10,629 nt of DNA from an uncultured Muribaculaceae bacterium (GTDB taxonomy: Bacteria > Bacillota_I > Bacilli_A > RF39 > UBA660): contig CAZSRL010000027.1 in the NCBI GenBank assembly GCA_964609615.1, positions 1-10,629 of the forward strand, in the 5' to 3' direction. Below the pieces are notes generated by a model. That model searched no databases and had not been told where the DNA came from. It worked only from the letters and a program-made list of their open reading frames with translations. Below, piece by piece: positions 6,004 to 9,865 of this stretch (positions are counted from its first letter, which is position 1; every line of letters starts with the position of its first letter). Made by a program: the position numbers and the translations under genes.

Positions 6004-7017
6004 TCAATGATTTTCTACTCTATTTAATAACTTATTAACATCTTGTAAGTTGCTATATTTAAAATAACCTTTATAGCTACTTATACTTTTATCATTCATA
6101 TATTTTATTTTTTTCTTTATTCTTCTTTTTGTTTTATTACATATTTTAATTATTAACTTTTTATTTTTTAATATAAAAGTATATCCTAAAAAACTAAAAC
6201 CATTATTAACATTATATATATTAGTTTTACTATTTAAATTAAGTTTTAATTTATTTAACTCTATATTTATATAATATAAACATTTTTTTAAATAATCTTT
6301 ATCATTACTAAATAATAAAAAATCATCCATATATCTAACATAACACTTTATTCTTAACTTTTCTTTTATATAATGATCAATATCATTTAAATAATATAAA
6401 GCAAGTATTTGACTACTCATATTACCTATAGGAAGACCTTTATTATACTTATATAAAGTAATATCTTTATTATTATACTTTAATATATTTTTATTAACAT
6501 AAGTTTTATTAGTACTATCAATAATATTAAATAATATCTTTTCTATTTCACTATCTAATTTAAGATTTAATAATTTTTCTTTTAAAATATCATGATCAAT
6601 ATTATAAAAAAACTTTCTAATATCACACTTTAAAACATATACATTACCATTTAATTTTAAACTATTTATAAAGCCTTTAACAAGCTTTATTCCTTCACCA
6701 CTACCTTTTCCCTCGCGACTTGCTATATTAGTGGATATAAGCCTTTTAAATATGTTTTCCTTTAAATAATATTCACTTATATAATAATTAACTATTTTAT
6801 CAATTAACTTTTCACTCATTATTACTCTACACTTAGGGTCACTTATTAAAAATATATTATAATACCCATGACTATATAAATCACTTTCTAATATATTTTT
6901 AATATTACAAACATTACTATTATAAAATAACTCAAACATAAATAACTTTTCTTTGTGTTTAGTATTTCTTTTAATATCTAAATAAACTTTATTTAATTTT
7001 TCAATATCAACTACCAC
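6004..7017 (-). CDS. DGR-type reverse transcriptase
   Basis: 337 aa. RT motif 4 reads GLPIGNMSSQILALYYLNDIDHYI, the [I/L/V]GxxxSQ signature that distinguishes DGR RTs from group II intron and retron RTs. Motif 5 reads YVRYMDDFLLF (YxDD catalytic box). GFSFLGY lies downstream. The size is typical of DGR RTs and there is no maturase or endonuclease domain. The annotated start is GTG and overlaps the upstream ORF by 11 nt with no obvious SD, so the exact start is uncertain. Confidence 0.87.
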   Translation of the reverse strand: MVVDIEKLNKVYLDIKRNTKHKEKLFMFELFYNSNVCNIKNILESDLYSHGYYNIFLISDPKCRVIMSEKLIDKIVNYYISEYYLKENIFKRLISTNIASREGKGSGEGIKLVKGFINSLKLNGNVYVLKCDIRKFFYNIDHDILKEKLLNLKLDSEIEKILFNIIDSTNKTYVNKNILKYNNKDITLYKYNKGLPIGNMSSQILALYYLNDIDHYIKEKLRIKCYVRYMDDFLLFSNDKDYLKKCLYYINIELNKLKLNLNSKTNIYNVNNGFSFLGYTFILKNKKLIIKICNKTKRRIKKKIKYMNDKSISSYKGYFKYSNLQDVNKLLNRVENH

Positions 7018-7345
7018 TTTTTAATAAACCATAACTAATCTTTCTAATTTCAATAATAAAATTAACTATCACTTCATACTTTCTTTTATTAATAATTTTT
7101 CTTTTATAACAAATACCCATATAATAATCAATCATACTTAAATTAACAATAAAGTCTTTTAAATTCTTTTCTTTGACTTTACCTATATTACATTTATAAT
7201 AAAATAATAATTCAATACTTTTATATAAACAAACCTCTAAATTACTTTTCAAAACAACTTCCTTTTTAGGACAATTAACTAATACTTTATTAATATAATC
7301 ATTTGTTTTTTTAACTTTATTTAATAATATAAAACTATAATTCAT
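7007..7345 (-). CDS. avd: Avd-like accessory variability determinant (small basic four-helix-bundle protein)
   Basis: 112 aa, Lys/Arg-rich. The pattern YINKVLVNCPKKEVVLKSNLEVCLYKSIELL...KRKIINKRKYEVIVNFIIEIRKISYGLLKS parallels Avd-family proteins (a P-K/R-K/E motif in helix 1-2 and a C-terminal EI.K...G..K). It sits immediately upstream of the RT and is translationally coupled to it. The similarity was judged by eye only. Confidence 0.6.
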   Translation of the reverse strand: MNYSFILLNKVKKTNDYINKVLVNCPKKEVVLKSNLEVCLYKSIELLFYYKCNIGKVKEKNLKDFIVNLSMIDYYMGICYKRKIINKRKYEVIVNFIIEIRKISYGLLKSGS

Positions 7346-7739
7346 TTATAAAATCCTTAATTTTACTATAATTATTAATATCCTTAACTAAACACTTATG
7401 CACTAAATTATTTAATAAATCTTCCTTATACTCAATATCGTAAAATAACTTAGCCATACTTAAATACCTATTATAATTATTAATATCTACTTTATAATAA
7501 ACAATATTATTCTTAGGATAACTAACTAATACACAAATACCACTATTATTTAACCCTAATATTACACTTTCAAGACTATTATCTGGAAAACCAACTATCA
7601 TATCATGTATTTTATACTTAAATATTTCATGTATTACTAACGCATCATCACCAAAACTTCTATAAAACTTTCCACAATTAACAATTACAACATACTTTTT
7701 ATTATTACTTTTCAAACTAAAATAAATACTCTTAAACAT
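7335..7739 (-). CDS. MutS domain I-like (mismatch-binding-domain-like) accessory protein
   Basis: 134 aa. YVVIVNCGKFYRSFGDDALVIHEIFKYKI...VGFPDNSLESVILGLNNSGICVLV lines up with the E. coli MutS N-terminus [29 protein letters not shown]...[30 protein letters not shown] RBS 8 nt upstream of the ATG. It is the first gene of the three-gene operon. Confidence 0.5.
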   Translation of the reverse strand: MFKSIYFSLKSNNKKYVVIVNCGKFYRSFGDDALVIHEIFKYKIHDMIVGFPDNSLESVILGLNNSGICVLVSYPKNNIVYYKVDINNYNRYLSMAKLFYDIEYKEDLLNNLVHKCLVKDINNYSKIKDFINEL

Positions 7740-7762
7740 TAATACTTCACCTATCTATAATA

Positions 7763-7797
7763 ATAGTATCTCTCTCTCTCTCTCTCTCTCGTGTCAA
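7763..7797 (-). promoter_or_regulatory. Candidate promoter of the accessory/RT operon with an over-long spacer formed by the (GA)11 tract
   Basis: The minus strand reads TTGACA (7797-7792), then C + (GA)11 (23 nt), then TACTAT (7768-7763). TATTAT variants lie just downstream, followed by AGGTGA and the ATG at 7739. The -35 is consensus, but the spacing is 6 nt longer than the 17 nt seen in the three other promoters in this window. Confidence 0.3.
7769..7790. repeat. Perfect dinucleotide microsatellite, (TC)11 on the plus strand and (GA)11 on the minus strand
   Basis: Read directly: tctctctctctctctctctctc at 7769-7790. It is the only such tract in the window. Confidence 0.97.
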
Positions 7798-8244: not shown

Positions 8245-8263
8245 GATTCCCTCTTTACTTAGT

Positions 8264-9811
8264 TTACTGTACTACATATGGATTAGCACTCGTTCCAGGG
8301 TTCTCCACGTTAACAGTTGCCAGTGTTTCAGCGGAGAGCGATATAACTGGGAAGACGCCGCGCGAGTAGTCCAGATCGTAGCTGCGCAGGCGACCATCAC
8401 TATTCACTTCCACCGCAGGCACACTACCATCAGCGACACGCCAATTGAAAGGAGACATAGTCCATCTAGATACTCCTGATTTATAAAGATAATATGATGA
8501 ATTTCCAGTACCATATATTCCTCCTGCAAATGCTACTTCATCTCCAGTTAATAATCCTACATTTAAATTATATATATCATTTCCTTCACTTGTAGATGTT
8601 GGACATATAAAACTAGGACTAGCAGATGCTACTGGATATAATCTATTTCTTACTCCAAAACAATAATAATCTGTTCCTGTTGTGTATGTTCTATCATTAC
8701 AAAACTTTGTTGGTACTACTTTACTTGAATAGTTTGTATTATTTCCTATATTTGTGTTATACCATGTTTCTACATTTCCTTTTATTGTTGAATTTCCATA
8801 TGTTGCATATGTTATTGCTGTTTCCCATGTTTTACTTGAATAATTTGTATTCCATGCACTATCTATTCCTGTTGTTGTATTAAGTACCAGTCTTACACTT
8901 CCGTCTCCATTGATTCTGACTACTCTCCATAGCATTGGATCTCCTGCACTATGTATAACTTCCGAACATTCTTGTGCTGATTCATTATAATATTCATCAT
9001 CAATACATTCACTTAAAGAACTTGCTTCCCAAACTTGCCAATTATATAATGTTTCTGTATAATTTGGTCCAAATGTTACATAGTTATCTGGTGCTGTCCC
9101 TCTAAAGTAATATGTTTTATCTCCATAGTCATCATTTGGACCACTAATTAATCCTTCATCGGTTTTTGATACTGCTCTTCCTGGATATGTTGTATATGTT
9201 GTTGGTGGGTTATTTGTTTTTAGCATGTCTGCTAATGTTGGTTCACTTGATGTTGATGCATTTACATCTAGTACTTCTATCTTTCCACTTATACTTTTTC
9301 CTTGGTTTTCATTTTGATTTTCATTCCTACTTAGAAATCTAAAATGTAGTGTATATGTTTGAGTTACTCCTGTTGCTATTGTTGCATTACTTATTATACT
9401 TACATGGTCTCCACTATTTGGTAGTTGTGTTTCTGATAGTGTTGAACCAGAGTTATTACTTGTTACACTATATACCATATCTGTTTTGGTTGTGAATGTA
9501 TTTGTTAGCGTTGCCCAGTTTATATTATAGTGTACTTCCCCGTCTCCTGTATTAGTTACAGTAAATGTTTTTTCTCCTGTCCACCCTGGCATTATATTAT
9601 CTTCGTTATATTCTGGTCCTCCATTATATGTTATAGAAAGGTTTGCAGTTGTTACTGTTACTCCTTTTGCTGTATCATTTCCACTTACTGTTGCTGAAAA
9701 CCATGCATATGATACTCCTGCTATTGCTATTATTACCACTAGTGTTAATACTGCTATTGTTTCTTTTTTATGTGTTTTTAGTTTATTTAAAAGTTTTTTT
9801 ACTTTATCCAT
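8264..9811 (-). CDS. DGR variable (target) protein, secreted or surface-located, with the VR in its C-terminal ligand-binding-type domain
   Basis: 515 aa with an AAAGGAGAAG RBS. The N-terminus KKETIAVLTLVVIIAIAGVSYAWFSAT resembles a SipW-dependent/TasA-camelysin-type signal peptide. A Thr/Asn-rich beta-type region follows (IMPGWTGEKTFTVTNTGDGEV). The C-terminal part contains WRVVRINGDGSVRLV, VGLLTGDEVAFAG and RWTMSP...GVFPVISL. The VR encodes residues about 452-489. Confidence 0.85.
   Translation of the reverse strand: MDKVKKLLNKLKTHKKETIAVLTLVVIIAIAGVSYAWFSATVSGNDTAKGVTVTTANLSITYNGGPEYNEDNIMPGWTGEKTFTVTNTGDGEVHYNINWATLTNTFTTKTDMVYSVTSNNSGSTLSETQLPNSGDHVSIISNATIATGVTQTYTLHFRFLSRNENQNENQGKSISGKIEVLDVNASTSSEPTLADMLKTNNPPTTYTTYPGRAVSKTDEGLISGPNDDYGDKTYYFRGTAPDNYVTFGPNYTETLYNWQVWEASSLSECIDDEYYNESAQECSEVIHSAGDPMLWRVVRINGDGSVRLVLNTTTGIDSAWNTNYSSKTWETAITYATYGNSTIKGNVETWYNTNIGNNTNYSSKVVPTKFCNDRTYTTGTDYYCFGVRNRLYPVASASPSFICPTSTSEGNDIYNLNVGLLTGDEVAFAGGIYGTGNSSYYLYKSGVSRWTMSPFNWRVADGSVPAVEVNSDGRLRSYDLDYSRGVFPVISLSAETLATVNVENPGTSANPYVVQ
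8345..8458 (-). repeat. DGR variable repeat (VR) within the 3' end of the target gene
   Basis: The VR encodes MSPFNWRVADGSVPAVEVNSDGRLRSYDLDYSRGVFPV. It differs from TR at 24 of 114 nt, and 22 of those are at TR adenines (A->G 11, A->C 6, A->T 5). All 22 fall at codon positions 1 or 2. The 3' end CGGCGTCTTCCCAG (8360-8347) is identical to TR (8062-8049), and homology is lost right after it, which is IMH-like. Confidence 0.88.
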
Positions 9812-9836
9812 ACTTCTTCTCCTTTATTATATGTTA

Positions 9837-9865
9837 ATTATATTATCTTTTATTTTTTATGTCAA
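9837..9865 (-). promoter_or_regulatory. Consensus sigma-A promoter of the DGR target gene
   Basis: The minus strand reads TTGACA (9865-9860), an exact 17-nt spacer TAAAAAATAAAAGATAA, then TATAAT (9842-9837), about 25 nt upstream of the ATG at 9811. Confidence 0.65.

Follow-up and report, generated by a model that had tools for sequence, protein, structure and literature searches.

A chromosomal diversity-generating retroelement with a MutS-like accessory gene between nusG and rplK of an uncultured bacterium, and its natural variable-repeat alleles

We analysed a 10,629-nucleotide (nt) stretch of contig CAZSRL010000027.1, here called the window, in which the gap between nusG and rplK is the site of a diversity-generating retroelement (DGR). 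The minus strand carries all of the window's long open reading frames (ORFs) and every part of the DGR: a target gene that ends in a variable repeat (VR), a template repeat (TR), a structured RNA, and genes for a MutS-like protein (MSL), an Avd protein and a reverse transcriptase (RT) (Table 1). A preliminary description had recognized an RT with IGxxxSQ and YMDD motifs, a small basic Avd-like protein, a MutS-I-like ORF, an adenine-specific TR/VR pair, an intact target ORF and a terminator between the TR and the enzyme genes, all co-oriented and apparently active, and every one of these claims was upheld by the analysis below. We assign a probability of about 0.92 to the reading that this is a functional chromosomal DGR of the MSL-containing class.

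Template repeat, variable repeat and natural alleles

Across the 112-nt core shared by TR and VR there are 23 mismatches, 21 of them at TR adenines. With one flanking position added (113 nt), 22 of 24 mismatches fall at TR adenines, an adenine bias with a hypergeometric P of 3e-11 given 38 adenines in 113 nt. The window's VR carries 11 changes to G, 6 to C and 5 to T at these positions. The A-rich copy on the coding strand is the one outside the target ORF, AAY codons (AAC or AAT) make up 16 of its 37 codons, and codon positions 1-2 hold 37 of its 38 adenines; therefore, no stop codon arises when they are replaced. Both repeats end in the GC-rich 14-mer CGGCGTCTTCCCAG, a candidate IMH element, beyond which their flanks diverge.

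Natural alleles were found through the exact NusG protein, which occurs in three other contigs (L089, L090 and another), and among the four members of the target protein's 90% cluster. L090 comes from a different sample and carries the same 515-amino-acid (aa) target gene, its nusG differing at 3 of 540 nt. Of the 113 positions, 23 distinguish the L090 VR from that of the window. TR adenines account for 21; the remaining two are the window's own two non-adenine mismatches, at which L090 has the TR base, so that these two differences are specific to the window's VR allele. Compared directly with the window's TR, all 16 core differences of the L090 VR lie at adenines (17 of 17 with the flanking position). 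L129, also from another sample, has a TR that differs from the window's by one base, and its VR departs from its own TR at 23 core positions, of which 21 are adenines (22 of 24 over 113 nt). Between L129 and the window there are 15 differences in ~1,970 nt outside the VR and 27 in the 113-nt VR. A fourth allele, P0180, is known as protein only and varies at Asn-templated positions, and the four protein alleles together vary mainly where the TR encodes Asn. L089, from another run that may share its source with the window, is identical to it over 4,049 nt, VR included; no further VR alleles turned up in the JGI metagenomes.

Backbone divergence between samples is thus below 1% around different VRs. 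Because such near-identical backbones carry three to four wholly different VRs, the rewriting must be recent. Among related strains, adenine-restricted polymorphism is confined to the VR (16 of 16 core differences in L090, 21 of 23 in L129), and the VR has been rewritten among natural strains, as expected of an active DGR. This is the polymorphism for which the preliminary description had asked as a check, and the DGR passed it, as it did the comparison of its RT with other RT classes.

The N-terminus of the target protein is basic and continues with a hydrophobic span and the motif GVSYAWFSA, a signal-anchor arrangement that would suit a secreted or anchored protein. The preliminary description had a chromosomal DGR diversifying a surface or secreted protein: the first part is supported by the nusG and rplK flanks, and the second is made plausible by this N-terminus. 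Residues 15-144 resemble Pfam Peptidase_M73 (camelysin/TasA-like) at E=1.7e-4, just below the cut-off. Targets of related DGRs can be aligned with its last 200 aa, with VGLITADE..AGG...YYLY...YWTMSP...GVRPVINL conserved; Pfam DUF6273 is matched by 16 of 26 aligned relatives' targets (best E=2e-6), and the window's own C-terminal 200 aa have no Pfam match. A C-type-lectin-like domain is a candidate for the part that displays the VR.

Outside the VR, the window and L090 differ in three tight clusters of changes that are not adenine-specific (9140-9190, 8810-8890 and 8504-8512, minus strand). These changes are mostly non-synonymous, fall at target residues ~209-223, 316-333 and 434-436, and may reflect recombination or diversifying selection.

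Table 1. Features of the window, with the promoter repeats of related loci (window positions unless a locus is named)
Feature	Position	Strand	Remarks
secE	10450-10629	minus	Flank, 5′ side in transcription order
nusG	9911-10450	minus	Flank, directly before the DGR
nusG stop and terminator-like hairpin	9890..9911	minus	GTGTA-GAAA-TACAC then T8; left edge of the DGR insertion
Target/TR promoter	9837..9865	minus	TTGACA-17 nt-TATAAT, 12/12 sigma-70 consensus; 26 nt upstream of target start
Target gene	8264..9811	minus	515 aa, pI 4.8; intact ORF; N-terminal signal-anchor, C-terminal VR domain
VR	8347..8458	minus	In frame, 3′ end of target gene; encodes MSPFNWRVADGSVPAVEVNSDGRLRSYDLDYSRGVFP
Inter-module spacer	8186..8244	minus	A/U-only hairpin after target stop (8244-8223); GC-rich hairpin CGGTGG-N8-CCACCG (8213-8194)
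Closing duplex, 5′ strand	8171..8181	minus	UGGGUAAAUUU; pairs with 7935-7925; ends 10 nt upstream of TR
TR	8049..8160	minus	112-nt ungapped direct repeat with VR, 79% identity (repeat finder)
Structured RNA	7831..8051	minus	~220 nt, immediately 3′ of TR; counterpart of the BPP-1 'Sp' region
Intrinsic terminator	7817..7849	minus	10-bp stem and T-run; terminator scan gives 7849-7827; ends the target/TR/RNA unit; right cassette edge
Enzyme-operon promoter-like region	7763..7797	minus	TTGACA (7797-7792), C, (GA)11 (7790-7769), TACTAT (7768-7763)
Msl	7335..7739	minus	134 aa, pI 8.6; Pfam MutS_I E=1e-8; domain I and two C-terminal helices
Avd	7007..7345	minus	112 aa, pI 9.6; Pfam bAvd residues 6-110, E=7e-10
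RT	6004..7017	minus	337 aa, PIGNMSSQ and YMDD; Pfam RVT_1 E=2e-20
rplK promoter-like site	5979..6007	minus	TTGAAA-17-TATTAT with TG; overlaps RT stop; downstream edge of insertion
rplK	5242-5865	minus	Flank after the DGR; start codon at 5865
L10 leader	4366-4481	minus	Rfam RF00557, 68 bits; upstream of rplJ
Small-domain methyltransferase	2833-3417	minus	Downstream of rplL
(GA)11 repeat	7763-7797		Window
(GA)8 repeat	L001:414-452		
(GA)10 repeat	L085:~260-300		
(GT)7 repeat	L039:2152-2185		
(GT)9 repeat	L063:7168-7205		

Reverse transcriptase and accessory proteins

Among all PDB sequences, the closest solved RT is 8ub7 (328 aa, E=2e-20), which we take to be the Bordetella phage bRT, and its PIGSLTSQ aligns with the window's PIGNMSSQ. 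It lies far ahead of the following matches: group II intron RTs do no better than 5e-10, and a retron RT reaches 4e-4. More than 2,200 RT homologues are present in the protein database, one identical and one 70% identical, and 474 relatives were confirmed in a scan with one genome per species. The best 80 of these 474 are 40-53% identical and nearly all come from metagenome-assembled genomes (MAGs), with labels that include uncultured Bacilli, Tenericutes, Mycoplasma sp. CAG, Firmicutes CAG:822 and Clostridium sp. CAG:451; phage or viral relatives reach 35-38% identity at most. To judge from these relatives, the RT belongs to a clade of cellular DGRs of reduced gut-type Bacilli. In a sister subclade, small ORFs of 82-119 aa with no Pfam match overlap the 3′ end of the RT gene (L050:9001-9258, L053:8035-8292, L060:9025-9273, L065:9085-9384, L074:9082-9369 and L075:3873-4232); they are absent from the window and could be a further accessory gene family.

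The Avd ORF overlaps MSL by 11 nt (7335-7345) and RT by 11 nt (7007-7017), which suggests translational coupling of MSL-Avd-RT, and positional counterparts of the Avd ORF in L001, L085 and L089 match Pfam bAvd. MSL-Avd-RT is the usual order in the RT clade, where 61 MSL ORFs were found in 85 loci. An exhaustive profile search returned 1,805 cluster representatives for MSL at E<=1e-3, and among the 150 matches listed one has 322 aa and the others 85-193 aa.

An AlphaFold2 (AF2) model of MSL built from a 45-sequence alignment has a mean confidence (pLDDT) of 94.4. Foldseek listed 50 PDB matches, every one a domain I from MutS, MSH3 or MSH6; the best has E=2e-6, and 71-79 residues superpose with an rmsd of 1-2.5 A. 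Residues 89-133 of the model form two additional helices. The protein lacks the connector, core, clamp and ATPase domains of a multidomain MutS. Within the family, F25, Y42, F51 and Y89 are invariant and G23, D32 and P52 nearly so. A profile alignment places F25 at Phe36 and R27 at Glu38 of the E. coli MutS motif GDFYELF; hence the Glu of Phe-X-Glu is Arg in the window's MSL, at a position that varies across the family.

The preliminary description had treated this third ORF, and the architecture, as unusual compared with BPP-1. Neither is new: MSL genes define Architecture D and occur in Bacteroides. According to Wu et al. 2018 (PMC5758913), MSL proteins are MutS-like, have 112-283 aa and are always found with avd and never with HRDC, and Architecture D includes the Legionella DGR. 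A Pfam scan likewise found no HRDC in the window's DGR, where avd adjoins MSL. Macadangdang et al. (10.1101/2024.11.15.621889) report Msl in three Bacteroides DGRs (Bfr, Bth and Bun) and find that host MutS cuts retrohoming 5- to 10-fold in an all-or-nothing manner. No function of MSL is reported in the accessible portions of these two sources. Because host MutS lowers retrohoming in Bacteroides, the most economical hypothesis is that MSL shields the heteroduplex of cDNA and VR; most likely it would act on this mismatch-dense heteroduplex, for example by keeping it from repair.

Transcription units, template RNA and genomic setting

The RNA beside the TR comprises the pairing UUCC (8047-8044):GGAA (7942-7939), three covarying hairpins, the 3′ strand of a closing duplex (7935-7925, the 11 nt directly after GGAAACA) and a 3′ domain. 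Compared with the nearest relatives, the TR-to-MSL spacer contains three invariant blocks, CAGATTCCTACTA at the TR end, GAGGAAGTAA and GATTGGAAACA, which co-occur in 27 of the 89 sequences examined. In a 31-sequence alignment, 26 of 35 consensus pairs show compensatory changes. Paired cells amount to 94.5%, compared to 32-50% in slid registers, and double-change cells number 149, compared to 21-36; none of 500 shuffles reached either observed value. The closing duplex recurs with 10-13 bp, differing sequences and many compensatory changes in 22 related TR units, and it also forms in the single-sequence minimum free energy fold of the window. A covariance model of the RNA found 51 copies in related loci, many outside the training set and almost without exception directly ahead of the accessory genes, and Rfam has no family on the TR-RNA region even at E<=1.

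The UUCC strand starts one base beyond the TR/VR homology and its partner GGAA is invariant, an arrangement that, by analogy with BPP-1, would prime cDNA synthesis in cis and let it start at ~8048-8049. For BPP-1 and, by prediction, 207 other DGRs, stem-loops 3′ of the TR, a 'cPRT stop' duplex and a short TR:Sp priming duplex have been described (Handa, 10.1101/2023.10.23.563531). By position and covariation, and not by sequence homology, the window's RNA elements appear to match those of BPP-1 in kind.

TR and target probably share one transcript. The closing duplex begins at 8181 and no credible promoter was seen between the target stop and that position, so that the TR RNA would be the 3′ part of the target transcript. 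An extended -10 element, TGATAGAAT, lies before the TR and was rejected as a TR promoter, since the conserved closing duplex begins upstream of it. The GC-rich hairpin of the inter-module spacer adjoins the upstream side of the closing duplex, and L001 (~8-35) has a GC-rich hairpin of different sequence at the same position. The promoter of this unit is conserved in L129, L089 and L090. Several loci contain tandem arrays of units in which a TR-like sequence precedes the RNA (two in L008, three in L021, four in L065 and five in L031); at L031:5421-7260, only the first unit is A-rich and VR-matching, and the other four resemble adenine-mutagenised copies.

L129 shares 2,082 nt with the window at 98% identity (window 9896-7815, L129:340-2418), the homology beginning in the T-run after the nusG hairpin and ending just past the RNA terminator. 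In L129 this stretch is flanked by ftsH and a DUF5698 gene, and MSL-avd-RT is not adjacent. Because these enzyme genes are missing beside it, promoter, target, VR, TR, RNA and terminator form a distinct cassette that can exist apart from the enzyme operon. L129 would hold either a cassette that has moved, in a different strain, or an additional copy that is served in trans.

The enzyme operon follows a promoter-like region of a different design. Its -35 and -10 hexamers are separated by a spacer made almost entirely of (GA)11. The two nearest relatives that retain the region have (GA)8 with a 19-nt spacer and (GA)10 with a 21-nt spacer, and two distant members have TTGACA-C-(GT)7-TATTAT with a spacer of 15 nt and TTGACA-AC-(GT)9-GATAAT with one of 20-22 nt. 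We scanned 946 kb of loci for non-AT dinucleotide repeats of >=6 units, a scan that excluded L085. All four repeats found, and that of L085, have a CTTGACA -35 on one side and an A/T-rich -10 on the other, before MSL-avd-RT, and they were the only ones. The RT subclades with such promoters are ~43-70% identical to the window's RT. None of the five promoters is at the 17-nt optimum, and whole-repeat steps could bring each of them there. Since the repeat lies between the -35 and -10 hexamers, slippage would alter spacer length, which suggests phase-variable control of the enzyme operon by the (GA)n tract. No within-population variation of repeat length was observed, L089 being the same as the window.

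The loci also contain 16 poly-G tracts (G8-G13), all with G on the RT-coding strand and most in promoter spacers. Some of these promoters belong to DGR targets, and two of the sites precede MSL; before a DGR target, L049 has TTGAAA-7 nt-G10-TATAAT with a 17-nt spacer. Sites include L049:5750-5759, L065:3221-3229, L074:11653-11660, L051:13533-13540, L082:4770-4777, L020:4978-4986 and L070:300-308, among others. These tracts suggest that phase-variable promoters are widespread in these reduced Bacilli.

The 22-mer CTTGACAC(GA)7 recurs in 37 metagenome contigs (L092-L128) of 0.26-0.74 GC with unrelated flanks and 7-29 repeats. No RT, Avd or MSL lies downstream of CTTGACAC(GA)n in any of the 37, and in several the following proteins have N-termini that look signal-peptide-like by eye. 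We therefore rejected the motif as a DGR-specific signal. Because these unrelated contigs carry it, the repeat-promoter architecture is generic, and the motif could represent a general type of promoter with a repeat in its spacer, or in part a chance occurrence.

The junction of nusG and rplK is normally contiguous, and here the DGR splits the two genes. The stem of the nusG hairpin is weak, below the reach of the terminator scan, and was read directly at the junction. Past the DGR, the transcription order is rplK, rplA, the L10 leader, rplJ, rplL, the methyltransferase (which resembles ybxB of Bacillus subtilis) and a long ORF running out of the window, probably rpoB by its position and length. 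The rplK product, L11, has 207 aa with an acidic, Ala/Glu-rich C-terminal extension of ~66 aa (pI 4.4) past the two Pfam L11 domains (5242-5440, minus strand). TGA serves as the stop codon of the RT gene and TGG as the codon for Trp, so that the genetic code is standard. The low-GC host probably belongs to one of the uncultured gut 'Bacilli/Tenericutes' lineages.

The four nearest contexts have a ribosomal protein gene directly after RT: rplK in the window, rpsJ in L001, rpsP in L002, where the RT ORF continues in frame into rpsP, and rpsU in L003 (stretches concerned: window 5865-6004, L001:2215-2369, L002:2330-2760 and L003:2166-2301). In L085 the RT is followed by a response regulator and in L004 by a helicase. 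No ribosomal protein gene follows RT in any of 76 more distant GTDB-derived loci, and the regions 3′ of RT share no common sequence. A clade-wide link between RT and ribosomal operons was accordingly rejected, and the neighbourhood is an unexplained small-sample pattern of the subclade.

Alternative explanations, mechanism and known systems

Several points weigh against a functional DGR. The evidence for activity consists of assembled contigs and one protein allele (the window's VR plus two other VR alleles at the DNA level). Changes outside adenines do occur: T8136/G8434 and C8110/A8408 in the window's TR/VR pair, one listed difference in the L129 VR, and in P0180 the residues E and Y, which adenine-only changes from the window's TR could not reach. 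Avd scores 39.8 bits against a Pfam bAvd cut-off of 40, and 36.5 bits (E=5e-9) against a cut-off of 80 for NCBIfam DivGenRetAVD. A hairpin downstream of the VR does not stand out from shuffled controls (z=+0.8), a profile of the VR domain found only noise among PDB sequences, and the single-sequence AF2 model of that domain is unusable (pLDDT 30). In addition, the enzyme-operon promoter has a 23-nt spacer and should be inactive as such. If the DGR were decayed or dormant and the TR/VR pattern a record of past activity, the two non-adenine differences could be post-homing decay, and both the seemingly non-functional spacer and the identical VR of L089 from another run would fit. We consider this improbable, as L089 may be the source sample itself, none of the four ORFs is broken and their starts overlap and are coupled, covariation shows the RNA to be conserved, and backbones less than 1% divergent bear entirely different VRs. 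It is scarcely credible that the RT is of retron, Abi/DRT or group II-like type and stands beside a repeat produced by an unrelated surface-gene duplication: its NCBIfam matches to group II (80 bits, cut-off 300), Drt3a (76, cut-off 200) and retron St85 (45, cut-off 235) all remain below threshold, whereas 8ub7 is the best PDB match by ten orders of magnitude, I-G-x-x-x-S-Q aligns with its counterpart there, Avd and the TR/VR pair adjoin the RT, and none of those classes produces an adenine-specific allele pattern. Carriage by a prophage or other mobile element, in place of a resident chromosomal DGR, would agree with the GC content of the MSL, Avd and RT genes (15-19%) and of the TR/VR stretch (8001-8500, 44%) relative to the flanking housekeeping genes (~30%), and with the differing genomic contexts of cassette and enzyme module among relatives. 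It is nevertheless very unlikely, because the 10.6-kb window contains no phage, integrase or transposase gene, as the preliminary description had also noted, its flanks are nusG and rplK, and cellular MAGs and metagenome contigs hold RTs 40-70% identical, compared to 35-38% for phage and viral ones.

The control of the functional DGR is a separate matter. One proposal is that the diversifier is a contingency locus, in which slippage of (GA)n, (GT)n or poly-G switches MSL-Avd-RT and the enzymes act in trans on portable 2.1-kb cassettes; we advance it tentatively and think it rather unlikely as a whole. The competing explanation, to which we give close to an even chance, is that the DGR is real and (GA)11 is no switch, the operon being expressed by read-through or from another start and the repeat being a neutral microsatellite or leader element. 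The observed spacers (15, 19, 20-22, 21 and 23 nt, none of 16-18 nt), the constant repeat length in L089 and the 37 unrelated contigs all favour the absence of a switch. Against this stand the exact placement of all five repeats between -35 and -10 before the operon, the occurrence of two repeat units (GA and GT) in subclades as divergent as ~43-70% RT identity, the variation in repeat number between close relatives (8, 10 and 11) and the poly-G tracts at the same spacer position in other promoters, such as that of L049 with its 17-nt spacer. The literature searched contained no report that links DGRs to repeat-driven switching, and the Bacteroides study states that the regulation of DGR activity still awaits discovery (10.1101/2024.11.15.621889).

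The functional DGR would operate from two units. From its consensus promoter, the first would be transcribed into the mRNA of the variable protein, probably together with the TR in its structured RNA, up to the intrinsic terminator; the second would be the translationally coupled MSL-Avd-RT operon behind the TTGACA-(GA)11 promoter-like region. Following BPP-1, RT and Avd would bind the RNA, in which the duplex of upstream and downstream strands would enclose the TR and the UUCC:GGAA duplex would set the priming nucleotide beside the TR 3′ end. cDNA would then be synthesized with random misincorporation opposite template adenines and would replace the VR, altering up to ~20 codons at the putative C-terminal ligand-binding tip. 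MSL, a stand-alone mismatch-binding domain, would most likely act on the resulting cDNA:VR heteroduplex. Under the contingency-locus proposal, slippage of (GA)n would confine hypermutation of the surface protein to a subpopulation.

Tens of thousands of DGRs have been catalogued, a MutS-like accessory gene has been described since 2017-2018, and as a DGR the window's element is ordinary. What it adds is recent activity, seen as three DNA-level VR alleles on near-identical backbones, in an uncultured gut-type lineage of reduced genome, and a DGR that is physically divided into a template/target cassette and an enzyme operon. The covariation of the TR-flanking RNA suffices to define a family absent from Rfam and supports the generality of the BPP-1 priming and stop architecture. 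Given the suppression of Bacteroides retrohoming by MutS, the clade makes the role of MSL testable. A repeat-controlled promoter, if true, would be a simple answer to the question of DGR regulation and offers a testable on/off hypothesis.

Contingency promoters with repeats in their spacers include the poly-A tract of Mycoplasma hyorhinis vlp and the (TA)n of Haemophilus influenzae hif. The window's promoter-like region resembles them in the position of its repeat between -35 and -10 and in a repeat number that differs among relatives. It differs in that the genes under putative control encode diversifying enzymes and not a surface antigen, and in that switching is suggested by the position of the repeat and by lengths compared between lineages.

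Compared to MutS, the window's MSL keeps the fold of domain I and the motifs G-x-F-Y...DDA...G-F/I-P, with invariant F25 at the mismatch-stacking Phe36. Unlike MutS, it consists of domain I alone, with Arg in place of the Glu of Phe-X-Glu and two extra C-terminal helices. With the MSL-containing DGRs (PMC5758913; 10.1101/2024.11.15.621889), the window's DGR shares an MSL within their size range, an adjoining avd and the lack of HRDC; the host differs, being an uncultured low-GC member of the Bacilli in place of Legionella or Bacteroides.

The BPP-1 DGR (mtd/VR - avd - TR - brt) resides on a phage, whereas that of the window is chromosomal and has the order target-TR-RNA followed by MSL-avd-RT. 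Its TR is therefore not between avd and RT and is parted from the enzyme genes by a terminator, an MSL gene is added, and the target is not Mtd-like by sequence. The likeness to BPP-1 extends to the RT, whose IGxxxSQ and YMDD motifs and closest structure (8ub7) agree, to a small basic Avd, to an AAY-rich TR with adenine-only VR changes, and to a VR at the 3′ end of the target gene. It extends further to the RNA elements that flank the TR, which appear as counterparts of the cPRT-stop, Avd-binding and priming elements of BPP-1 (10.1101/2023.10.23.563531).

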